Under the pieces are notes generated by a model. That model saw only the letters and a program-made list of their open reading frames with translations. It was not told the origin of the DNA and searched no databases. DNA of 24,000 bases, taken from NCBI RefSeq assembly GCF_900142125.1, contig NZ_FQZT01000012.1, positions 27,965-51,964 of the forward strand, in the 5' to 3' direction. Below, one piece after another: positions 1 through 12,833 of this stretch. Source of the stretch: Malonomonas rubra DSM 5091. Its GTDB lineage: Bacteria > Desulfobacterota > Desulfuromonadia > Desulfuromonadales > Geopsychrobacteraceae. The translations under genes were made by a program, and so were the position numbers. Numbering within the stretch: the stretch's first letter is position 1; each line of letters starts with the position of its first letter.

Positions 1-903
1 AGGCGTAATGCCTCTCCCTTTCCAGTCAGCCATTTCAACACTATCGGGTGGAACACTTCCCCCAATGAAAGTGAAGCGCTCTTTCAAGTCATCAAATCTC
101 TTTCCGTCAGCGGCTACAGCATTGAGAAGATAGCGCATGGGAGGGTCGTTGGCACTGTACCCGACCAAAACGATATGGTAGAGGCGTGCGACATCATAAA
201 TAAAATCTGGCACGACCCGTCTTCTCAAATAGAACTCGCCAAAATCCTGATCAGTAAGTATCAAGTCCACATTTCGGGATGGATCAGAATCCAATGCACC
301 GTGGATATGTAAAACTCCGGAGAAGTCCTCTCTACGCCCAGGCCTTGGGATTCCTCCGAGGGTATATGTTTCAACTTTCTGACCTTGATTACGCGAGGCT
401 TTTTCCAACAGAAGATCGAAGTTGGTCGTTGCGATTGCCACAGCCCCACCACGATCAGACAAGCGCATAAGCGATCGATGAACCGGACTTGGCTTCGAGC
501 CTTTAGTAAGGAGTAGAGTTCTTACCGCTTGCCTGACCTTGCTTTTTGCGTGCGGGTCATTATCAATCCGACGTTCAAGTAAACCCAAAACGACATCATA
601 ATCTTTTTGAACAAACCTCCTCACCTCTGCTGATTGGCCTTCATTTAAAGTCGAAAGATCTGGCTGATAACAATCGGGAGCATTGGAAGGGATGATGGAG
701 ATAACTGCGTGAACTGCTTGATCTAGAATACTATACACCTGAAGCACTAAATCTCTAAAATCAGGTAACGTTGGCCGCGAGATACCGGCACCCGCAATAA
801 AAAGGACCTCACCTCTAGCGTGAGCCAGCAATAGCCTCTCTGGGATCGCTGGGAGGCCAGGTCCTAAAGGAATAATTCGATCGCTTGCTAGGCTTTTATT
901 CAT
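1..903 (-). CDS. SIR2-family (SIR2_2 / ThsA-DSR-like) NAD-binding domain protein; N-terminal 301 aa, C-terminus outside the window
   Basis: Absent from the ORF track because it runs off the window. ATG at 903-901. I checked every in-frame triplet down to nt 1 and found no stop. The translation begins MNKSLASDRIIPLGPGLPAIPERLLLAHARGEVLFIAGAGISRPTLPDF. Later segments are AIATTNFDLLLE, GVLHIHGALD and IVLVGYSANDPPMRYLL. These carry the GAGxS, TTNxD, HxHG and VGYSxxD motifs typical of defence-type sirtuin domains. Confidence 0.75.
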   Translation of the reverse strand, partial: MNKSLASDRIIPLGPGLPAIPERLLLAHARGEVLFIAGAGISRPTLPDFRDLVLQVYSILDQAVHAVISIIPSNAPDCYQPDLSTLNEGQSAEVRRFVQKDYDVVLGLLERRIDNDPHAKSKVRQAVRTLLLTKGSKPSPVHRSLMRLSDRGGAVAIATTNFDLLLEKASRNQGQKVETYTLGGIPRPGRREDFSGVLHIHGALDSDPSRNVDLILTDQDFGEFYLRRRVVPDFIYDVARLYHIVLVGYSANDPPMRYLLNAVAADGKRFDDLKERFTFIGGSVPPDSVEMADWKGRGITP

Positions 904-971
904 TACATTTCACCGACTTAACATACAGACAACAGAGACGACAGATATCCGCCATGCCTACATCTGTTGCG

Positions 972-1952
972 TCAATAAACCATCTCATCCCTTGAATCAT
1001 GCCAATGTGGATTTATCTTTCCGTCTTTGAGCGGTGTGTTGTCCTCTATTGGGCCGATAATCGCTTCAAGCTTTTCACGCCACCCCTTGCGCGAATACCA
1101 GTTACGCACCTTCAATGCTTCTTCAGAATCAGCAACCGAGCGGCTTTCTGCTGCAGTAAAAATGTAATCTTCTGGATACCAGCCGACATGAGAGCGATGT
1201 TCCATCAGGGGCCCAGGAAAAATCTGCCCTTCCATAATTGCCTCAATCTCATCGGCCTCCATGACACAGCCTTTGAAGTAGATGCCGAGCATGTGCGCGA
1301 TTAGCGTTTTGGCCTTAAGCTGCATTCGCGTGCGTTCGTAGCCCCAGTAAATCTGGTCTCCTAGTGGGTAGTAGCGCCAGATAGAATCTTGGCAGCAGTC
1401 GCCCCAATGATCGAGTTCCACCCTGAACAAAAGAGCGATAAAAAAACAATCACAAGGGCCGTGTGACTCGATACTTTTCTGCAATTTGTCTTCTGGTCGT
1501 TTAATCGCGAATCCTTGAATAGCAACACCTGACTTTTTCAGCTCAAGCAAAAAATCTATATAGCTTGACAAGTCGTCGTTGTGACCGAGATAGGGGTATA
1601 TTGGCACATCCTTACCATCCAACCAGTCCCGCTGAACACCAAAACTGTCACAAGTTGTTTGCAGCAATTTTTCGTTGAGAGCTTGGAGCAACTTTTCGTC
1701 GGTACTAACGTCGACAAGCGAAAGCCCGCCCTCCTCTCCGAGAAACCTTGGAATCTGGGTTCGCTCTATGCCATGTGACTTGTATATCTGCACAAATCGT
1801 TCAACCAGAGAAAACACTTCACTAGTTTTGGGCTGTTCTTCTTGTTGATTTTGCCCGACTAATGATTCGGCTGATTTTCTAGTTACCCATCGCCAAAAAG
1901 CGTATATGCCCCCAATCACAGCAAATAAAGAAGCGATTGTTTCAAGCATCAC
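972..1952 (-). CDS. Hypothetical membrane-anchored protein (326 aa), no recognisable family
   Basis: ORF-track ORF. Its start (GTGATG at 1952-1947) overlaps the hsdS stop TGA (1951-1949), implying translational coupling. The N-terminal hydrophobic helix LETIASLFAVIGGIYAFWRWV is followed by a Q/E-rich linker and a soluble part of about 280 aa rich in Trp/Tyr/Cys. I recognise no catalytic motif. Confidence 0.7.
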   Translation of the reverse strand: MMLETIASLFAVIGGIYAFWRWVTRKSAESLVGQNQQEEQPKTSEVFSLVERFVQIYKSHGIERTQIPRFLGEEGGLSLVDVSTDEKLLQALNEKLLQTTCDSFGVQRDWLDGKDVPIYPYLGHNDDLSSYIDFLLELKKSGVAIQGFAIKRPEDKLQKSIESHGPCDCFFIALLFRVELDHWGDCCQDSIWRYYPLGDQIYWGYERTRMQLKAKTLIAHMLGIYFKGCVMEADEIEAIMEGQIFPGPLMEHRSHVGWYPEDYIFTAAESRSVADSEEALKVRNWYSRKGWREKLEAIIGPIEDNTPLKDGKINPHWHDSRDEMVY

Positions 1953-3664
1953 GCCACCAAAAGCTGCCGAACGGTAGCTTCCAAAAGTTTTTCGCTGTGC
2001 TGCTCGGTTTGGTTGAGCTTAACTTCGAGTTCGTCGCAAAGGGACATAAGTTGATCAACCTTGGCAACGATGCGTTTTTGCTCCGAGGTAGAGGGGACTG
2101 GCACCTCTATCGCTTTAATTTTGCCAATATATAAGCATGGCTGTGCAGACTGTTTAACATTGCCCCAAATTTGATTTTGCCCAACAGGGCTACGAAGCAA
2201 AACCGATAGGTACTCAGGCAAAATCCCTGGAGTAAACGGGCGGATTAAAGCAACACTCCTGACTAAAACGAAGTCTTCAGGGTCTTTGATTACAGTCAAA
2301 CGACCAGTGGTCGCTCCGACACACACCATCAAAATATCATCATGTCTCGGGTAGCACCTTCTCCAACATTTTTCTGCTGTTTCTTCGGATACAAAATCCG
2401 TGACTCGCAGATCAACATACCCATCCCTTATATTTTTTGCTGTTGCCAAAGGCACTCCTGAAGCAACTCTCGGAGGCGTCGAATGCTCCCCATCTGTAAC
2501 TAGCAACGTCACATCCTGAAAACGTGACCATACCCAACCATCTGGAACTGGATGCAGAAGACCCTCAACCTCAGGAAGCGTTTTGTCCTTCTTAATAGCC
2601 TTCTCCTTAACCAGCCTCTCCTTTTCAGCCTTAATCCTTTTCAGCAAAACCGAAGCAGGCTCATCGTTGGGATCTTGGGGGACGAGCTTGCCCTGAACTG
2701 CGAGCTGGAGGATGGCTGCGCGGAGTTTGGCGATGGTTTCGGGGTGGTCGTAGAGCAGGTCGAAGTTGGTGCTGATGCGCTGCCAGTGGTCGGCGAATTC
2801 GTCGGGTTCGCGGGCGGTGAGCAGTGCGTCGAGGGCGGCGTTGTTGAGGCGCACCCGCCCCTGCTGCTGCATTTGCTGGCGATCTTCGAGTTCGTCGCAC
2901 AGGGCCATGAGTTGGTCGACCTTGGCGACTATGCGTTTTTGTTCTTCGAGGGGTGGGAGAGGGATCGGAACTTCATTTGCCCTCGAAATTGTCAGCGTAT
3001 GAACCGTGGTCCCCATGCTTTCTTTATGAATCGTATCAATCCAATATGGAGTCCTCAGAAGACAACTTAGGAACCGAGAATATAAACCATAGTGGTTTTT
3101 AAAAATCAGAACGCTCGCGTCCTTGAAGTAAAATCTGTCTGAGTTTTTGACTATATACGGGATGCCAATCGTTCCAACCCCAGTGATCATCAGGTCGTTT
3201 TCTTCTGGCACTAATCCACCATTTGACAACTCCTGAAACAATTCCTCAGAAATAAAAAGCTCATTATTCACAGTTCCGAACTGTGAGAGTTTGACTATCT
3301 CTCTCGCCCTAAGAAAAGGGACCCCCTTGCTTTTCCAATCTTTTTTATGAACTCGACTGCTTGAGCCAATCAACCCCAGCGCACCAAATCTGCACCACTC
3401 CCATGCCCTTGGAAGCTCGAAAGGGATACCATCCTCGGAGATAGGAGGTAGAGTCTTGGGTGGCTTTATTCTTCCCTCAGTTACAAGTCTTTCTTTTGCA
3501 ATCTTAATTTTCTCCAGCAAAACAGAAGCAGGCTCATCGCTCGGATCTTGCGGCACTAGCTTCCCCTGCACCGCAAGCTGAAGAATCAACTCCCGCAGCT
3601 TTTGCACCCCGTTGGGCGCATCGACCAGATGTCCAAAATTGGCAAAGAACGTCTCGGCGGTCAT
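1949..3664 (-). CDS. hsdS: Type I restriction-modification specificity subunit HsdS (two target-recognition domains)
   Basis: 571 aa. Duplicated conserved helices ILQLAVQGKLVPQDP[S/N]DEPASVLL and [E/S]EQKRIVAKVDQLM[A/S]LCDELE flank two divergent TRDs. There is a 4-nt overlap with hsdM. Confidence 0.9.
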   Translation of the reverse strand: MTAETFFANFGHLVDAPNGVQKLRELILQLAVQGKLVPQDPSDEPASVLLEKIKIAKERLVTEGRIKPPKTLPPISEDGIPFELPRAWEWCRFGALGLIGSSSRVHKKDWKSKGVPFLRAREIVKLSQFGTVNNELFISEELFQELSNGGLVPEENDLMITGVGTIGIPYIVKNSDRFYFKDASVLIFKNHYGLYSRFLSCLLRTPYWIDTIHKESMGTTVHTLTISRANEVPIPLPPLEEQKRIVAKVDQLMALCDELEDRQQMQQQGRVRLNNAALDALLTAREPDEFADHWQRISTNFDLLYDHPETIAKLRAAILQLAVQGKLVPQDPNDEPASVLLKRIKAEKERLVKEKAIKKDKTLPEVEGLLHPVPDGWVWSRFQDVTLLVTDGEHSTPPRVASGVPLATAKNIRDGYVDLRVTDFVSEETAEKCWRRCYPRHDDILMVCVGATTGRLTVIKDPEDFVLVRSVALIRPFTPGILPEYLSVLLRSPVGQNQIWGNVKQSAQPCLYIGKIKAIEVPVPSTSEQKRIVAKVDQLMSLCDELEVKLNQTEQHSEKLLEATVRQLLVA

Positions 3665-5130
3665 GCCGACTCCCCCGCCGCATCGGTAGCCCGCTCCAAC
3701 GCATCCATCAACTCCTGCTTCAGCTTTTCACGAGTCTCGGAAACACTGGCGAGCAGTGTTTTATACTCGGCCAGCAGCTCTTCGGGATCGCCGTGGTCAG
3801 CCTCGACGGTGTTGGGGTTCTTGATATCGAGGTTGTAGCCGTTGACCTTGATCTGTTCGACCGAAACCTTCCACGCCTGCTCGCTCTCCACCCGGTTCTG
3901 CCACCATGCCTTCTCGGGCGCGAACTCTTCGATGCGCATCGGCTTGGTCTTGGAGTAGCTCTTGTACCCTTCGGGATAGGGGTGCTCGTAGTACCAGACC
4001 TCCTTGGTCGGCTCCCCCTTGGTGAAGAACAGCAGGTTGGTCTTGATGCCGGTGTAGGGGTTGAATACACCGTTGGGCAGACGTACCACGGTGTGCAGGT
4101 TGCAATCTTCGAGCAGCTTTTCTTTGATACGGGTCTTGACGCCTTCACCGAACAGGGTGCCGTCGGGCAGAACGATGGCGGCACGACCACCAGTTTTGAG
4201 CAGGTGCATGATCAGCACCAGGAACAGGTCGGCGGTTTCACGGGTACGGAAGCTGGCCGGGAAATTGGCCTCGATGCCGTCCTCTTCGGTGCCACCGAAC
4301 GGAGGGTTGGTGACCACCACATCAACTCGATCCTTGGGGCCATAATCACGTAGGGGGCGCGACAGGGTGTTGTCGTGACGGATGTTGGACGGCACTTCGA
4401 CACCGTGCAGCAGCATGTTGGTGGTGCAGAGCAGATGCGGCAGAGCTTTTTTCTCAACGCCGAAGACCGATTTCTGCAAAAGCTGCTCATCCTCAGCGGT
4501 CTTCACGTAATTGCCGCGTACATGTTCGATGGAACAGGAGAGGAAGCCGCCGGTGCCGCAGGCCGGATCGAGGAGCTTCTCACCGAGTTTCGGATCGACC
4601 ATGTCGACCATGAACTGGGTGACGGCACGCGGAGTGTAGAACTCCCCGGCGTTGCCCGCGCTCTGCAAGTCCTTGAGGATCTGCTCGTAGATGTCGCCGA
4701 AAGTATGGCGGTCGGTGGAGCGGTTGAAGTCGATCTCGTTGATCTTGTTGACCACCTGACGGATGAGGGTGCCGTTCTTCATGTAGTTGTAGGCATCCTC
4801 GAATACCGAGCGCACCACCAGGCCGCGCCCGTTGGTTCCGGCGTTCAGCTCCAGCTCCTTGAGGCTCTTGAACAGGTCGTTGTTGATAAAGTCGAGCAGT
4901 TCGTCGCCGGTAATTCCTTCGCTATCGGCAGCCCAATTGCGCCAGCGCAGTTGCTCGGGGATGGGAGAGCTGTATTCGTCGGAGAGGAGTTCCAGCTCCT
5001 GCTCCTGATCATCGAAAATTTTCAGAAAGAACATCCAGACAAGCTGGCCAATCCGCTGCGCATCGCCGTCAACCCCGGCGTCCTTGCGCATAATGTCCTG
5101 GATGGATTTGATGGTGGTGGATACTGACAT
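3661..5130 (-). CDS. hsdM: Type I restriction-modification N6-adenine DNA methyltransferase subunit HsdM
   Basis: 489 aa. SAM-binding motif I is LDPACGTGGFL and catalytic motif IV is VVTNPPFGG. The N-terminus is HsdM_N-like. AAGGAG Shine-Dalgarno sequence (SD) lies just upstream, overlapping the hsdR stop. Confidence 0.95.
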   Translation of the reverse strand: MSVSTTIKSIQDIMRKDAGVDGDAQRIGQLVWMFFLKIFDDQEQELELLSDEYSSPIPEQLRWRNWAADSEGITGDELLDFINNDLFKSLKELELNAGTNGRGLVVRSVFEDAYNYMKNGTLIRQVVNKINEIDFNRSTDRHTFGDIYEQILKDLQSAGNAGEFYTPRAVTQFMVDMVDPKLGEKLLDPACGTGGFLSCSIEHVRGNYVKTAEDEQLLQKSVFGVEKKALPHLLCTTNMLLHGVEVPSNIRHDNTLSRPLRDYGPKDRVDVVVTNPPFGGTEEDGIEANFPASFRTRETADLFLVLIMHLLKTGGRAAIVLPDGTLFGEGVKTRIKEKLLEDCNLHTVVRLPNGVFNPYTGIKTNLLFFTKGEPTKEVWYYEHPYPEGYKSYSKTKPMRIEEFAPEKAWWQNRVESEQAWKVSVEQIKVNGYNLDIKNPNTVEADHGDPEELLAEYKTLLASVSETREKLKQELMDALERATDAAGESA

Positions 5131-5146
5131 ATTGGAAAGTTACTCC

Positions 5147-7495
5147 TTATCCTGCGGTTCCATAGAGTTGTTGTTCGAGCTCACGTAGAGCAAGTTCAAA
5201 CTGTTTACGGCCGCCAAATTGCCGAACGATCTCAATCGGCGTACCGAATCTGTCGAGCGGCTGAACACGTAGCACCTTGAGATCTTCGATGCTTTCCACG
5301 CCCTCATCGGCATACTTATCGAGCAACGCGTCTAATACCGCTTTGGCCTGCTCGCCGTACTTTGCAAAGTAATTTCGTTTGCGGACATTCTCCGCACGTT
5401 CGCGCCTTGTCAGTGGCGGCTGGTCGAAAGCAACATGGCAAATCAAATCGAAAGGTCCGAAGTCCTTTCCGACCTCATCTGCCAGGGCATCCCAGAGGAT
5501 TCCCTCTTCTGCGAGTTCATCAATAACTGCCTGTTTCTTATCTGCCTCACTCCAGTGACGGATAAAGTCACGCAGAGTCTTAAATTCCTTTGCTACAGTC
5601 TTTTTGGTGTAGTCCTTGAGCGATTCGGTAATCAACTTGCCATCTGGGCCGTAGTATTGGACCCGCTCAGCAACCACATAAAAAGGAACATCGCCAACGA
5701 CATATTTCTTGCGCGGCTCAGGCTCTGGCCCGTCGCCAGGGGGAATAGGCGGAGGTTCAGGATGATCAGGGGGCTCACCATCTTCTGGTGGTTCTGGTGG
5801 AACAGGAGGGTCATCTGGACCAGGCTCGTAGATTTGCACCGGGTCACCATCAAAATCGGGATCGGCAAATAACTCTGTCGCCTTTTTGAAGTCGATGATG
5901 GTGAAGTAATACTTGTCGTAATCCTCGTTGATACGGGTACCACGACCGATGATCTGTTTAAAGGTTGTCATCGAGTTGATGGTCTGGTCGAGGACAATCA
6001 GTTTGCAGGTCTGGGCATCAACCCCCGTGTTCATCAGTCGGGAAGTCGTTGCAATCACCGGGTAGCGACTTTCTGGGTCGATAAAATTGTCGAGCTCCAT
6101 CTTGCCGAGATTGTCATCTCCGGTGATTTTCATCACGTACTTGCTGTTTTCTGCGGCGAGATCCTTGTTCGCGTTGACCAGTTCCTGCCGCATCCGCTCG
6201 GCGTGATCTATATCTTCACAAAAGACGATAGTCTTATCGAAACGGTTACTGGCCTTGAGGAATGCTGTGATCTTCTGCGCCACCAGTCGGGTGCGCAGCT
6301 CCATCACCAGCTCCCTGTCCATATCTTTGAGGTTGTAGATCCGGTCAGGGATTAGGTTGCCACTCCTGTCAACCTGGCCAGATTCAGGTCGCCAACCCTG
6401 AAGGTCTTTATCGAGATCGATCCGCACCACCTTGTAGGGAGCGAGGAAGCCATCATCGATTCCCTGCCGAAGGGAATATGTGTAGACCGGTTCGCCGAAG
6501 TAGTGAATATTGCTAACGTCCTTTGTTTCCTTCGGGGTTGCAGTCAAACCGACATGCGTGGCAGTGGAGAAATAATCGAGAATCTCCCGCCATGCAGAAT
6601 CTTCGGCGGCGCTGCCACGATGACATTCGTCGATCACCACCAAGTCGAAGAAATCTGGGGAGAACTGCTTGTAGATATTTTTTTCTTCCTCGTTGCCGGT
6701 CACCGCCTGATAGAGAGACAGGTAGATCTCGTATGACTTGTCGGCCTGACGCTTTTCGATCTTGGTCATTGCCGGACCAAACGGTTTGAAGTCGTTAGTC
6801 TTGGTCTGGTCGACAAGGATATTGCGGTCAGCAAGGAAGAGGATGCGTTTCTTGGTGCGAGACTTCCACAGACGCCAGATGATCTGGAATGCAGTATAGG
6901 TTTTTCCGGTTCCGGTAGCCATGACCAAAAGCAGCCGGTTTTGCCCCTTGGCTATGGCCTCAACCGTGCGATTAATGGCGACCCGCTGGTAGTAACGTGG
7001 TTCTTTTCCACTGCCGTCGGCATAATAGGGCTGCTCGACGACATCTTCAACCGAAGGCCCTATTTTCTTCCACTGCTTATAACGTTGCCAAAGGTCTGCT
7101 GGTGACGGGAACTGTTCGAGAGAGAGTTGCTGCTCTACTGAGTCAGACAGCCCTGTACGATCATGAAAAAGAAATCCATCTCCGTTGGAGCTGAACGCGA
7201 AAGGCACATCGAGGATCTCGGCATAGTCGAGTGCCTGCTGCATGCCGTGTCCGATACTGTGAGTATTATCTTTCGCCTCGATAATGGCGATAGGTTGGTT
7301 CGGTTTGTGGTAAAGGACGTAATCGGCGCGCTTGGCCTTGCCACGGGAATGCAGCTTGCCGCGGACAATGATGCGCCCAGCCGTAAATGTGACCTCTTCG
7401 CGAACCTGCGTGTGGGTATCCCAGCCGGAAGAGAGGACTGCCGGGAGAATGAACTTGGTGCAGATATCGCGCTCAGACAGGTCTTTCTTCGACAT
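5147..7495 (-). CDS. hsdR: Type I restriction enzyme endonuclease/translocase subunit HsdR (EcoEI/EcoAI-like, family IB-type C-terminal domain)
   Basis: 782 aa. The N-terminal PD-(D/E)xK nuclease motif is ADYVLY...IAIIEAKD. Walker A is [11 protein letters not shown] and the DEAH box is VIDECHR, followed by helicase C motifs. After a Pro/Glu-rich linker, the C-terminal roughly 170 aa resemble the EcoEI_R_C domain. Confidence 0.93.
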
Positions 7496-8845: not shown

Positions 8846-9787
8846 ATGAAATGCGGCAGCGAGAAAAACAACGGCTGGGGAACGCCTCTGATATGGGCAT
8901 GCCTCCAAGCCCTCAAACACAGATACGGCAAAGGGTGCTACGCGACTTTAGCGACCCACAAAGCTCATTTAACTCATTTTGCGAAGTACCTGAAGGCCCA
9001 CAACATCAACGATATCATGCGGGTGTCTGTGGAGGTGTTGCTTGCCTACGCAACATGCGTGCAGGAAAAACACAGCAATAACTATGCAAGGAACCTGATT
9101 AGCAGTGCGAACATCATCGTTGAGTCTGTCCGCGGCGATCGCAAGGTCCGGCTCGACCCATCGGAGGTTCTGGCACGTCGACAATCTGCCCGCAAGGATG
9201 CACCAGCAGGGCTAAATCTTGATGATGTCAATCGGGCAGCAGAGAGCCTCACCGAGAACGGCTACCCGAGAATCGCCGTCCTCATTCTGCTGATCAGACA
9301 TTTCGGAATGCGGCTCAAGGAGGGCTGCCTTATTGATCTCCGTGTCGCGTTACGACAAGCTAAAAAGCACGGGAAGATCGATGTGCGTCGAGGGACAAAA
9401 GGCGGTAGAGGCCGAACAATCGAAAGGTGGGTGCCTGCCACGGAACAAGCAATTGAGGTGCTGGTTCAGGCTCAAGCCTTTAGCTCAAAAGAAACAGGAA
9501 GCCTTATTCCGTCTGATATGAGTTCGGTTGAGTTTATGCGGCTGGCGAAAAGGGTATGGCGAAAAGTTAGGAAGGAATTTGGTCTCAGCAAAATCCACGA
9601 TCTGCGTTCAGCGTTCGCCTGCGATCGATATAAACAACTGACTGGCCATGATGCCCCGGCATGCCATCGCGGGAATCTCTCCGCGACGAAAGAGCAAGAC
9701 CGAAAAGCTCGCGATGTCATCGTTAAGGAGATTGGGCATGGAAGCCGTGGGCGCATGGCACCTTATGTCGGGCGAGGTGCGCGATGA
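8846..9787 (+). CDS. Tyrosine recombinase / phage-integrase-family protein
   Basis: 313 aa. GGAG SD sits 8 nt before the ATG. The full catalytic set is visible in order: Arg in HFGMRLKEG, Lys in RGTKGGRGRTI, His-x-x-Arg in IHDLRSAFA, then GH and Tyr in EIGHGSRGRMAPYVG. Confidence 0.7.
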   Translation: MKCGSEKNNGWGTPLIWACLQALKHRYGKGCYATLATHKAHLTHFAKYLKAHNINDIMRVSVEVLLAYATCVQEKHSNNYARNLISSANIIVESVRGDRKVRLDPSEVLARRQSARKDAPAGLNLDDVNRAAESLTENGYPRIAVLILLIRHFGMRLKEGCLIDLRVALRQAKKHGKIDVRRGTKGGRGRTIERWVPATEQAIEVLVQAQAFSSKETGSLIPSDMSSVEFMRLAKRVWRKVRKEFGLSKIHDLRSAFACDRYKQLTGHDAPACHRGNLSATKEQDRKARDVIVKEIGHGSRGRMAPYVGRGAR

Positions 9788-10224
9788 GGTGGGAGATAGG
9801 CCCAACTAGGGCACAGCGTGAAGCCACAGACTTTATCAAAAGTCGGCTACAAGGCAGTAAGAAAGGCATTGGCCGACAGCTCAAAGAGTGTCTGCGTGTG
9901 ATCTCGGTTATCAATGGGAAATTCGGTGTCGGCATCTATAACCTGAAATGCAGCCATCTGCACTGGTATTTGTCCGTGTACGACAAGGACCATAGCCCCA
10001 AGACGCGAAATAACCACTGGTACGCCGTATTAAGAATTATCGAAGCCTTGGGCAAAGAGGCTGATTGGAAGCCAAGACTTTCCAGTGGCCCCTGGGTTCG
10101 AAAGAACGGTGATTACTCTAAGCCAATCGAAATACGGCGTCCGAGCAAAAAGGCCACGCCATCCTTCCGAGGTAGGAGGCAAACTACACCAACAGCCACT
10201 CACAAAAATCGAAAAAGGCGCTAA
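9784..10224 (+). CDS. Hypothetical protein (146 aa) with a basic C-terminal tail, translationally coupled to the tyrosine recombinase
   Basis: ATGA start/stop overlap with the upstream gene at 9784-9787. No motif recognised. The Lys/Arg-rich C-terminus is RRPSKKATPSFRGRRQTTPTATHKNRKRR. Confidence 0.5.
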   Translation: MRWEIGPTRAQREATDFIKSRLQGSKKGIGRQLKECLRVISVINGKFGVGIYNLKCSHLHWYLSVYDKDHSPKTRNNHWYAVLRIIEALGKEADWKPRLSSGPWVRKNGDYSKPIEIRRPSKKATPSFRGRRQTTPTATHKNRKRR

Positions 10225-10336
10225 ATGACGTTTTTTCGGAACTCATTTTTAAAATCAAGCTGTCAAACTGACACTGTAATTAAAAATTAAAACTACGGGT
10301 TCCCGACAAGACTTCGAAGTGGGCCAAGGAGCAGAC

Positions 10337-10519
10337 ATGTTTGATCGAGACAAGATAGCGACCCTCATAAATAAAAGAGTCAACCGGGTACTTCAATACG
10401 CTGAAGCATCATTACCACAAAGTCAATTCCGAGCATTTCGGAAGTTAGTACTCGATGAATTCGGCGACAACGGAATGGCTAAAGACTTAAACAAAATGGG
10501 ACGGAACGGGCAGGAATAG
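10337..10519 (+). CDS. Small hypothetical protein (60 aa from the ATG; the track lists a 66-aa GTG-start version from 10319)
   Basis: AAGGAG at 10326-10331 lies 5 nt upstream of the ATG at 10337. The sequence looks helical and no family is recognised. Confidence 0.4.
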   Translation: MFDRDKIATLINKRVNRVLQYAEASLPQSQFRAFRKLVLDEFGDNGMAKDLNKMGRNGQE

Positions 10520-10547
10520 ATTATGCGAAGAAGGAGGTGCGCCATGA

Positions 10548-10688
10548 GTGGATAGCGCAAGCCGCAACAGTGACCAATTGGCAAACGAATATTCCGAATG
10601 GCAAGACAAACCACTACCGGAAGAAATACGACTTATTCAGACACACTTAGCAGACATATTGGAAGATATGTTTCAAGAATCAAACTGA
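10548..10688 (+). CDS. Unlisted small acidic ORF (46 aa, GTG start): MDSASRNSDQLANEYSEWQDKPLPEEIRLIQTHLADILEDMFQESN
   Basis: Below the size cutoff of the ORF track. A perfect AAGGAGG at 10531-10537 lies 10 nt before the GTG at 10548. Its TGA (10686-10688) overlaps an ATG at 10688 that is in frame with the resolvase-like gene. The sequence reads like a real helical protein. Confidence 0.35.
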   Translation: MDSASRNSDQLANEYSEWQDKPLPEEIRLIQTHLADILEDMFQESN

Positions 10689-11137
10689 TGGAGAAGAAAA
10701 TGATTGTAGCCCTTTACGCTCATGCATCACCCGACAGGCAAAGGGAAAATGAACCCTTTGCATCTAACCAAATATCTCGAATGAGGGCCCTTTGCGAGGC
10801 ACAGGGTTTTTCTGTCGCTACTGAATATATTGAGACTGAAGACACTGACACAGAACATCACACCCCAATGTTTAAGAAAATGATTTCTGAGGCCACTGAA
10901 GAAACGGTTCCTTATGACGCCATAATAGTAAGCAGCTGTTCAGGACCGTTTCAGCATGAAGTCACATATGCCATCTACAAGCATCATTTGGGCAAACATG
11001 GTGTCGATCTTATCGATGTAGACCAGCGGAGCCTTGATGAAACCTTTTCCGTGAAGATATTGCGTCTCGTCCTTTCTTCTTATGAGGCCCCCCTTAAAAA
11101 CGACCACATTCTTAGAGATTGGGTGCTAGACAAATGA
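10688..11137 (+). CDS. Resolvase-domain-only serine-recombinase paralog, probably catalytically inactive
   Basis: The track lists 10598-11137, but alignment with the next gene starts at MIVALY (ATG 10700, GGAG 6 nt upstream; alternative ATG at 10688). MIVALYAHASPDRQ aligns with MIVALYARVSTTKQ, and IIVSSCSGPFQHE with IIVHSLSRFFRE. Ser10 is kept. Arg8 is replaced by His, and the two SR..R arginines by Gly and Gln. It has no recombinase or zinc-ribbon domain. ATGA overlap with the next gene at 11134-11137. Confidence 0.7.
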   Translation: MEKKMIVALYAHASPDRQRENEPFASNQISRMRALCEAQGFSVATEYIETEDTDTEHHTPMFKKMISEATEETVPYDAIIVSSCSGPFQHEVTYAIYKHHLGKHGVDLIDVDQRSLDETFSVKILRLVLSSYEAPLKNDHILRDWVLDK

Positions 11138-12750
11138 TAGTTGCACTATACGCTCGCGTATCAACTACAAAGCAGGCCGAAAAGGATCTTTCGATCCCTG
11201 ATCAACTGGGCCAGATGAGGGATTGGTGCAAGTGGCAGGGCCATTCCATCGCTGCTGAGTACAATGAACCCGGAGCTTCTGCAACTGATGACCGTCGGCC
11301 AGTATTTCAACAGATGATAGCCGATGCTTGTGTAAATCCAGCACCCTTTAGCGCAATTATTGTCCATAGCCTGTCACGCTTTTTTCGTGAAGCCATCGAA
11401 TTCGGTATCTATGAAAAGAAGTTGGCCAAACAAGGAATCAGTATTGTCTCAATCACTCAACCGACCAACGATGACATCACTGGAGACCTGATCCGAAGGG
11501 TTATTAATGTCTTTGACGAATATCAAAGCAAAGAGAACGGAAAACACACTCTGAGAGGTATGCAAGAGAATGCTCGCCAAGGCTTTTTCAATGGAGCGAG
11601 ACCACCTTATGGCTATCGTGCAGTCGAAACTGAGCTTCCTGGTAAAAACGGTAAAAAGAAAAAGCTGAAGATTGACGAAAGAGAAGGGCCAACTGTCAAA
11701 AAAATCTTCGACCTTTATTTGAACGGCCACAGAGGGAAAACTCTGGGCGCCTACGGAATCTCCTGTCATCTGAACACGCTGGGAGAAACCCATCGAAGCA
11801 AAGAATGGAGTAGTGCGACCATCCTCTATATACTTAAAAACACTGCCTACATAGGCGAGTACTATTTCAATAAATTTGACTCCAAAAACAGAAAACCCAA
11901 ACCGAAAGAGCAGTGGATTTTGATTCCTGTTCCCTTGCTTATCGATAAAGAAGATTTTGAACGCGTGCAAAACCTTATCAAGGAAAGGGATCCACAGAAA
12001 ACTCCTGCACGCGTCACCAATTCGCCAACCCTGTTAACCGGTCTTCTCAAGTGCTCTTGTGGTGCGAGAATGACACTGGCAACTGGGAAAGGCGGCAAAT
12101 ACCGCTACTACAAATGCACAACGCGGATCAATCGAAACAAGCAAGCCTGCGACAGCTCAAGCATACCGGTCGAGACTTTGGACAGGCTCATCCTTGATGC
12201 AATCTCTGATAAAGTTTTCACTCCTCAAAGGGTCGCTGCAATGCTGAGAATGCTTCAAGAGCAGGTCAAGAATTCGCGCTCAAAGCATGATGGCGAACTA
12301 CTCTCCCTCAAAAAGGAACTTGCCCAAGTAGAGCAATCTCTCAGCCGACTCTACGAAGCGATCGAAAATGGCCTTGTCGCTCTCGATGAGACACTAAAAC
12401 AACGTACACAGAACAACCAGTACAAACGTCAAGAGATTCTGACCGAAATAGCCCGAGTAAAAAAGGAAAGCGAATCAGATTTCGATCAACTCGGACCAGA
12501 AAATGTTTTGCTCTTCTGCAATGCACTGAAGGCGAAGCTACATGACAGCTCGTCAAATTTCGGCAAAAATTATCTTAAATTGCTGATCGAAGATATCACT
12601 GTAGACGGAAAAGAAGTTCGTATCACAGGGAGCTATGCTGCTCTGGCGGGCGCACTGGAAAAAACAAAGGCGGGCGACTCGTCACGAGTGCCCACCTTTG
12701 GTGTGGTATGGCTCCCTTTGCTGGGCTCGAACCAGCGACAATCTGATTAA
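11134..12750 (+). CDS. Large serine recombinase (resolvase domain + recombinase domain + zinc ribbon + coiled coil)
   Basis: The track ORF 11119-12750 uses a TTG start; the likely start is ATG 11134 (MIVALYARVSTTKQ). Visible elements are the catalytic R8/S10, SRFFRE, GARPPYGY, the zinc ribbon CSCGARMTLATGKGGKYRYYKCTTRINRNKQAC, and a coiled coil ELLSLKKELAQVEQSLSRLYEAIENG. The last 42 nt overlap tRNA-Asn on the opposite strand. Confidence 0.9.
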   Translation: MIVALYARVSTTKQAEKDLSIPDQLGQMRDWCKWQGHSIAAEYNEPGASATDDRRPVFQQMIADACVNPAPFSAIIVHSLSRFFREAIEFGIYEKKLAKQGISIVSITQPTNDDITGDLIRRVINVFDEYQSKENGKHTLRGMQENARQGFFNGARPPYGYRAVETELPGKNGKKKKLKIDEREGPTVKKIFDLYLNGHRGKTLGAYGISCHLNTLGETHRSKEWSSATILYILKNTAYIGEYYFNKFDSKNRKPKPKEQWILIPVPLLIDKEDFERVQNLIKERDPQKTPARVTNSPTLLTGLLKCSCGARMTLATGKGGKYRYYKCTTRINRNKQACDSSSIPVETLDRLILDAISDKVFTPQRVAAMLRMLQEQVKNSRSKHDGELLSLKKELAQVEQSLSRLYEAIENGLVALDETLKQRTQNNQYKRQEILTEIARVKKESESDFDQLGPENVLLFCNALKAKLHDSSSNFGKNYLKLLIEDITVDGKEVRITGSYAALAGALEKTKAGDSSRVPTFGVVWLPLLGSNQRQSD

Positions 12751-12784
12751 CAGTCAGATGCTCTACCAACTGAGCTAAAAGGGA
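12709..12784 (-). tRNA. tRNA-Asn (anticodon GTT), CCA encoded
   Basis: The minus-strand sequence is TCCCTTTTAGCTCAGTTGGTAGAGCATCTGACTGTTAATCAGATTGTCGCTGGTTCGAGCCCAGCAAAGGGAGCCA. It folds by hand into a clean cloverleaf:
- 7-bp acceptor stem TCCCTTT/AAAGGGA.
- D arm GCTC/GAGC.
- Anticodon stem TCTGA/TCAGA with loop CTGTTAA.
- T arm GCTGG-TTCGAGC-CCAGC.
- Discriminator G followed by CCA. Confidence 0.93.
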
Positions 12785-12804: not shown

Positions 12805-12833
12805 AATATAGGAGATTGACTCTCCGCTGTCAA
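12805..12833 (-). promoter_or_regulatory. Sigma70-type promoter for tRNA-Asn
   Basis: On the minus strand, TTGACA (12833-12828) is followed by a 17-nt spacer and TATATT (12810-12805). The -10 element ends about 20 nt before the mature tRNA 5' end. Confidence 0.6.

Follow-up and report, generated by a model that had tools for sequence, protein, structure and literature searches.

A catalytically degenerate resolvase-domain ORF overlapping the start of a large serine recombinase gene

In the window (the whole stretch of 24,000 nucleotides of Malonomonas rubra DNA analysed here), a short ORF encoding a resolvase domain ends on the start codon of a large serine recombinase (LSR) gene. This locus raises the question of whether the small protein acts on the recombinase, whether its reading frame serves only as a translated leader, or whether it is what is left of a duplicated or displaced gene. 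The first-pass annotation of this DNA had favored a dedicated non-catalytic partner, for example a regulator of tetramer assembly or of directionality. Coordinates of the features discussed below are shown in Table 1.

Table 1. Features of the small ORF, the adjacent LSR and the related paralog loci (window positions, unless a locus is named)
Feature	Position	Strand	Evidence or remark
Conserved 46-aa ORF, GTG start, Shine-Dalgarno (SD) AAGGAGG at 10531-10537	10548..10688	+	Frame conserved in D. kysingii
GGAG SD of the small ORF	10690..10693	+	SD pairing; orthologous to the D. kysingii LSR SD
Catalytically degenerate resolvase-fold ORF, 145 aa (small ORF)	10700..11137	+	ORF, Pfam, BLASTP, D. 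kysingii alignment, AF2
SD-like GGGTG for the LSR, inside the 3′ end of the small ORF	11121..11125	+	SD pairing
ATGA stop/start overlap of small ORF and LSR	11134..11137	+	Sequence
Complete 538-aa LSR (Resolvase, Recombinase, Zn ribbon)	11134..12750	+	Pfam, alignment
tRNA-Asn(GTT), island/chromosome junction	12709..12784	-	Same arrangement in D. kysingii
Ser->Ala paralog loci, P0272-P0274	L003 253-2962 (-); L046 5001-7710; L044 135-1812

The small ORF and the adjacent recombinase

The reading frame runs from ATG 10700 to the TGA at 11135-11137, and the LSR begins with the ATG at 11134-11136, as expected from the stop/start overlap described in the first-pass annotation. A start at 10688, given in the same annotation, was not borne out. 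This in-frame ATG lies four codons 5′ of ATG 10700 and has no SD (pairing of -0.7 kcal/mol), whereas ATG 10700 is preceded seven bases 5′ by GGAG (-6.4 kcal/mol) and corresponds, in a DNA alignment, to the start codon of the homologous LSR of Desulfuromusa kysingii. Because of this SD and this alignment, ATG 10700 is the likely start, and ATG 10688 is probably unused.

Pfam analysis detected the Resolvase domain (PF00239) in residues 4-124 of the small protein, with 25.9 bits (cut-off 23.3) and an E-value of 1.2e-5. It was the only Pfam domain found, and recombinase, zinc ribbon and coiled coil parts are absent. In BLASTP, the protein aligned with the N-terminus of the adjacent LSR with 35% identity over 141 aa (E-value 2e-26). 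Both proteins begin with MIVALYA, and the small one terminates inside helix E, at approximately LSR residue 147. Paralogy through the resolvase domain from a shared start, and a short protein that stops after this domain, had both been recognized in the initial reading of the DNA and were confirmed.

Catalytic residues were compared with those of 119 LSR clade members, with a 35-sequence alignment and with the catalytic domain of TP901-1 integrase (3BVP). Four arginines that are invariant in the clade are replaced in the small protein (R8H, R55T, R82G and R85Q), and these positions are equivalent to R8, R45, R68 and R71 of gamma-delta resolvase. The motif S-R-F-F-R became S-G-P-F-Q, and the clade-invariant DDRRP loop reads EHHTP, and therefore the Arg45 equivalent is gone. 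On the other hand, Tyr6 and Ser10, the latter at the position of the nucleophile, are kept; Ser10 is present in both the clade and the 3BVP alignments, in agreement with the first-pass annotation. The replacement of Arg8 by His and of the SRxxR arginines by Gly and Gln was likewise found in alignments with the 119 clade members and with 3BVP. Alignment to a characterised LSR (TP901-1), suggested beforehand as a check, upheld the arginine losses, to which comparison with the clade added that of the Arg45 equivalent. The LSR in the window keeps all catalytic residues.

Gamma-delta/Tn3 resolvases with S10A or with substitutions of R8, R68 or R71 are inactive for cleavage. Judged by its sequence, the small protein cannot function as a recombinase and DNA recombination would be beyond it, because the arginines, much of helix E and all DNA-binding domains are missing. 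Engineered resolvase mutants are altered at the same positions, but these are full-length laboratory proteins which bind DNA, whereas the small protein is natural, truncated and without DNA-binding domains.

An AF2 model of the small protein, for which LSR N-terminal domains served as the input alignment, showed the resolvase topology b1-aA-b2-aB-b3-aD-b4-aE with a pLDDT of 69.6, and residues 129-145 fell below 50. When this model was used in Foldseek, the TP901-1 catalytic domain (3BVP) was the top match, and 3GUV and 6DGC were also found (TM ~0.6). ESM Atlas returned only generic clusters of 150-165-aa resolvase-domain proteins, which are at most a lead. Among the known systems compared, the TP901-1 catalytic domain (PF00239) is the best sequence and structural match, with the same fold and order of secondary structures and with Ser and Tyr6 in common. 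Unlike that domain, the small protein is a stand-alone product of 145 aa in which four arginines are replaced and helix E is shortened or diverged. A complex prediction for the small protein with LSR residues 1-155 gave a score of 0.02, which is below the mark and is no argument either way with respect to binding.

The LSR gene overlaps the antisense tRNA-Asn gene with its last 42 nt, and therefore the small ORF and the LSR are a pair at the edge of a tRNA-integrated island. A second tRNA-Asn 3′ segment at the far end of the island was not found on the contig, and thus this end is unmarked by an obvious repeat. At 1-7495, the island contains SIR2 genes and a type I R-M operon. A near-consensus sigma-70-like promoter (TTGACA, 17 nt spacer, TATATT; 11/12 match) is located at 12805-12833 on the minus strand, immediately upstream of the tRNA-Asn gene.

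The LSR clade has a module, in the window at 8846-12750, of a ~300 aa protein, a 60-76-aa gene and a 41-49-aa gene which abuts the LSR. The ~300-aa protein of the window has a weak Integrase_1/phage-integrase match, and an extra 146-aa gene is present at 9784-10224. The two small module proteins have no Pfam match and are candidate integrase regulators or recombination directionality factors (RDFs). The 46-aa ORF has a strong SD, AAGGAGG (-15.3 kcal/mol). In the 3′ part of this ORF, 31 nt (10619-10649) match D. kysingii with 100% identity, also at synonymous positions, unlike the flanking LSR genes, which are saturated at third positions. This identity suggests a nucleotide-level constraint, for example on a DNA site or on a regulatory RNA, just 5′ of the integrase start.

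With regard to expression, neither a terminator nor a promoter-like site was found between the two genes, and the RNA across the junction had no structure beyond that of shuffles (z -0.15). The GGGTG in front of the LSR pairs with -6.9 kcal/mol, compared with -5.9 to -6.4 kcal/mol for the ancestral SD; of random positions, 12.6% reach -6 kcal/mol. Since the LSR has its own SD-like site and the junction RNA is not unusually structured, coupling is not obviously required, and the LSR may not be strictly dependent on it. These signals bear on the explanation which we rank as the main rival of a role in modulating the LSR, and which we consider possible, though the less favored of the two. According to it, the LSR was left without a UTR of its own after the duplication, the frame is kept open only to bring ribosomes to the ATGA for re-initiation or to avoid polarity, and the 145-aa product itself is functionless. 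The ATGA overlap and the position of the ancestral SD, which sits with the small ORF, fit a translated leader well. However, the GGGTG of the LSR is as strong as that ancestral SD, and the junction RNA has no significant structure that would hide the LSR start.

As the LSR overlaps the small ORF in the -1 frame, a programmed -1 frameshift could in principle fuse the dead domain to the LSR, generating a protein with two catalytic domains. This candidate was rejected as highly improbable. Upstream, the LSR frame is open only from 11119, inspection of 11119-11134 revealed no X XXY YYZ slippery heptamer, no stimulatory structure follows downstream, and the LSR keeps its own ATG along with the SD-like site.

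Origin and distribution of the small ORF

Among its relatives, the LSR is closest to that of D. kysingii (72% identity), and the island which carries the latter occupies the same site, a tRNA-Asn gene next to mglA/mglB. In D. kysingii, the LSR comes directly after a 64-aa gene and the 46-aa frame, with a 183-bp spacer only and no paralog. In a DNA alignment, the 5′UTR, SD and first codons of the D. kysingii LSR matched the DNA ahead of the small ORF; the LSR in the window has no leader of its own and abuts the small ORF. Because the D. kysingii leader and SD align ahead of it, we conclude that approximately the first 146 codons (434-440 nt) of the LSR gene underwent a partial tandem duplication and that the small ORF is the upstream copy. 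The LSR begins with ATGA, and a junction in this phase immediately terminates the frame of the upstream copy, which explains the overlap. Microhomology at the junction is limited to the common AAATGAT, and the frames misfit a simple E145-N146 junction. Over the C-terminal 390 residues, the window and D. kysingii LSRs are 69-77% identical and thus clear sisters, and identity to others is ~45%. In their N-terminal domains, the two share 69% identity, which does not exceed the identity to other clade members (~71%), and this discrepancy between the N- and C-terminal parts could be explained by a domain mosaic or by unequal rates.

It might also be proposed that an older or foreign integrase lost its 3′ part to the arriving LSR and that the small ORF is the 5′ stump left behind. 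In this case the small ORF would have diverged largely as part of an active enzyme. The small ORF is indeed no closer to its neighbor (34% identity) than to other clade members (31-39%), and at positions where the neighbor departs from the clade consensus, it matched the consensus 7 times vs 3 in a count from the alignment. However, no closer LSR clade was present among 1.84e9 representative proteins, and the top matches all belonged to this clade. Of the 70 columns that are at least 95% conserved in the clade, 45 are changed. In addition, the 5′UTR, SD and first codons are orthologous to those of the D. kysingii LSR, and the lack of a UTR between the small ORF and the LSR is as expected at a tandem duplication junction. 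We therefore regard displacement of an older integrase as unlikely.

The distribution of the small ORF was examined with tblastn in 25 related LSR loci, each of which included several hundred bases or more upstream of the LSR. A second resolvase-like segment was detected in none of them (0/25), and the locus in the window was the only one to have it. A paralog was also missing from three more relatives (59% identity), in which the module is composed of ~300 aa, 67-76 aa and 41-49 aa proteins and the LSR. A word-indexed search of 5.8e9 proteins yielded no orthologue and returned only the small protein itself and one LSR fragment, and an exhaustive phmmer search of 1.84e9 representative proteins also yielded none. 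The best database matches were all members of this LSR clade (31-41% identity; 35-41% for the best ones in the exhaustive search). Among the short matches in the latter search, all 53 of the 53 examined keep YARVS, and those that reach the SRFF-type motif keep its first arginine with one exception; therefore, they are fragments of ordinary LSRs. When the small protein was compared with the genomes of 60 relatives, only that of a Desulfuromonas sp. MAG (designated G055) was matched, at two places.

Thus, the small ORF is a singleton, unique to this genome. As it has no orthologue, cross-lineage conservation, the usual proof of function, cannot be shown for it. The dedicated non-catalytic partner proposed in the first-pass annotation is in this respect only half sustained: the protein is non-catalytic, but absence from 25/25 loci and from the databases speaks against a conserved, dedicated partner. 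No described equivalent was known to the first-pass annotation, and this also agrees with the literature, in which we found no description of natural dead resolvase-domain partners of LSRs.

Constraint on the reading frame

Absence of the small ORF from homologous islands had been named beforehand as a sign of a decaying duplicate. The absence was found, whereas decay was not, as judged by the open frame and by the pattern of substitutions. Third codon positions are saturated (identity 0.37) when the small ORF is compared with the LSR, and also when the two LSR orthologues are compared; therefore, pairwise dN/dS of the small ORF is not estimable, and simulations were used instead. Neutral drift to the observed identity corresponds to about 225-250 substitutions in 435 nt. 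Over this divergence 9-10 stop-creating changes are expected, and the probability of an open frame is ~1e-4 with frameshifts left out of the count. No stop or frameshift was seen, and the frame is open throughout. Apart from the uncertain C-terminal end, alignment with the LSR required one internal in-frame gap of 2 codons.

Sequences were then allowed to drift, stop-free, from a clade-consensus-coding sequence (the most favorable start) down to the same identity. Scored with a family-profile HMM, the small ORF reached 97 bits, compared with 58-63±9 bits and a maximum of 90 for the drifted sequences. None of the simulations attained 97 bits (0/300 at each of three transition/transversion ratios, 0/900 overall). 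The BLOSUM sum was also higher, 224 vs 178±18 in simulated sequences (p 0.004). Predicted beta strands were preferentially preserved, with 17/25 consensus residues retained compared with 36/120 elsewhere (Fisher p 5e-4). The least retained segments were those most conserved in the family, namely loop 46-55 (1/10), the SRxxR segment (3/8), helix E (4/22), in which a Pro is inserted, and the C-terminal continuation of helix E (3/16). Helix E is the canonical dimer interface, and its poor retention speaks against a heterodimer of the canonical type between the small protein and the LSR. Among the clade-invariant columns (at least 95% conserved), 25/70 (36%) are retained, no better than among variable columns, and at this level the loss of all four arginines is not significant by itself (0.64^4 = 0.17). 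Taken together, the tests indicate that the fold core of the small ORF has been under selection and that its catalytic and helix-E surfaces were released or remodelled, on the assumption that divergence accrued after the duplication and with reference to past, not necessarily present, selection.

A decaying pseudogene fragment, that is, an unselected partial duplicate which is open by chance, is very unlikely on these grounds. In its favor are the absence from all related islands and databases searched, the loss of the catalytic residues and the low confidence of the C-terminus in the AF2 model. Nevertheless, the low probability of an open frame, even before frameshifts are considered, the non-neutral substitutions and the intact SD and ATG are difficult to reconcile with it. 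The translated leader discussed above is a more serious alternative, since selection against stops alone would account for the open frame, and since family-invariant and variable columns were lost at an equal rate. However, the substitutions are far more compatible with the family than those of stop-free drift (97 vs ~60 bits), and the beta strands were preferentially retained.

Since the ORF is intact and the beta-sheet core is preserved, its product is most likely a folded, non-catalytic resolvase-core protein, and a role of this protein as an LSR modulator is probable. In its full form, our preferred explanation is that the small ORF encodes a young, translated, non-catalytic resolvase-core protein which modulates the LSR via coupling, via non-productive association, or both; we give it about an even chance. 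The alignments show that the 5′ end of the LSR gene underwent a lineage-specific partial tandem duplication, with the ancestral 5′UTR and SD retained by the upstream copy and with the full-length LSR starting at the duplication junction, where it overlaps the stop of the small ORF. In the upstream copy, the four arginines and all DNA-binding domains are gone, and so is much of helix E. We infer that it is translated, that it binds the LSR and that it affects recombination. The small protein would be made from the same mRNA as the LSR and just before it. Modulation might follow two routes: LSR translation could be set by stop-start coupling, or the small protein could sit as a non-productive subunit on the LSR catalytic domain, damping or gating integration and excision.

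Truncated paralogs in a sister subclade and relation to known systems

A second case was observed in a sister subclade. In the Desulfuromonas sp. MAG (G055), the operon consists of a 304-aa gene, a 48-aa gene, a 282-aa truncated LSR paralog, an 80-aa ORF and a 541-aa LSR. The 282-aa paralog is 39% identical to its own LSR and stops within the recombinase domain. In this protein, YDRFAID replaces YxRVST (Ser->Ala), and the arginines are kept. It shares only 23% identity with the small ORF of the window and thus arose independently of it. Two orthologues of 287 aa (49-51% identity) have the same Ser->Ala change; one has a 43-aa gene directly before it and a live LSR directly after it, and the other follows a 49-aa gene at a contig end. 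For the two close members of this group, dN/dS was 0.51-0.56, which is relaxed and, by this rough count, <1. In one element, the 80-aa ORF, which has a degenerate resolvase-like N-terminus (VGIYCRIGNRRQ), overlaps the start of the live LSR by 4 nt.

The G055-type paralogs and the window ORF belong to the same LSR family, and in both cases the slot in the operon is that which follows the 41-49-aa gene and directly precedes a live LSR. Both are truncated and catalytically compromised, and they have diverged from their partner LSRs to a similar extent (39% and 35% identity, respectively). They differ in that the G055-type proteins are longer (282-287 aa) and keep part of the recombinase domain. 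In addition, these proteins lose the serine and keep the arginines, and the window ORF does the reverse. Moreover, the G055 type occurs in three elements with dN/dS of ~0.5, whereas the window ORF is a singleton. Since the Ser->Ala paralogs are independent of the window ORF, there were at least two births in the slot before a live LSR. Comparison of the sequences thus indicates that a dead, truncated paralog ahead of a live integrase arose at least twice in this LSR family and persisted at least once, and within the sister subclade it suggests that the 5′ end of the LSR gene was partially duplicated more than once.

To our knowledge, RDFs are the only natural protein regulators of serine integrases. 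Those of phiC31 (gp3), Bxb1 (gp47), SPbeta (SprB) and TP901-1 (Orf7) are small, element-encoded accessories which act on the LSR protein and not on DNA, and in this they resemble the role proposed here. By definition, an RDF binds its integrase and turns on attL x attR recombination. Known RDFs have no sequence relationship to the resolvase domain, and their target is the coiled coil or the DNA-binding part of the integrase. If the integrase is indeed preceded by an expressed, dead version of its own catalytic domain, this would be a different kind of regulator. Dead-enzyme regulators are known elsewhere, for example the trypanosome AdoMetDC prozyme (PMC5201418). There, a duplicated dead domain is found beside the active enzyme, as in our case. 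The prozyme belongs to an unrelated family, and its regulation was demonstrated, whereas for the small protein regulation is inferred.

It is tempting to speculate, although we hold this view only tentatively, that 5′ ends of LSR genes in this family repeatedly yield retained, co-translated, non-catalytic "half-integrase" accessory subunits. Such subunits would form an undescribed class and might, for example, act as a stoichiometric brake which locks the island in the chromosome, and the window ORF would then be a newly born member.

Serine integrases are major genome-engineering tools. The locus offers a duplication junction along with a closest relative that lacks the duplication and may serve as a natural control; with the junction visible and the sister island lacking the duplication, it represents a dated birth event. 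It also has an independent, conserved counterpart in the sister subclade. If the preferred explanation is true, the small ORF would be a clear case of a new gene born from partial duplication, and its product a built-in dominant-negative or gating subunit of the integrase.
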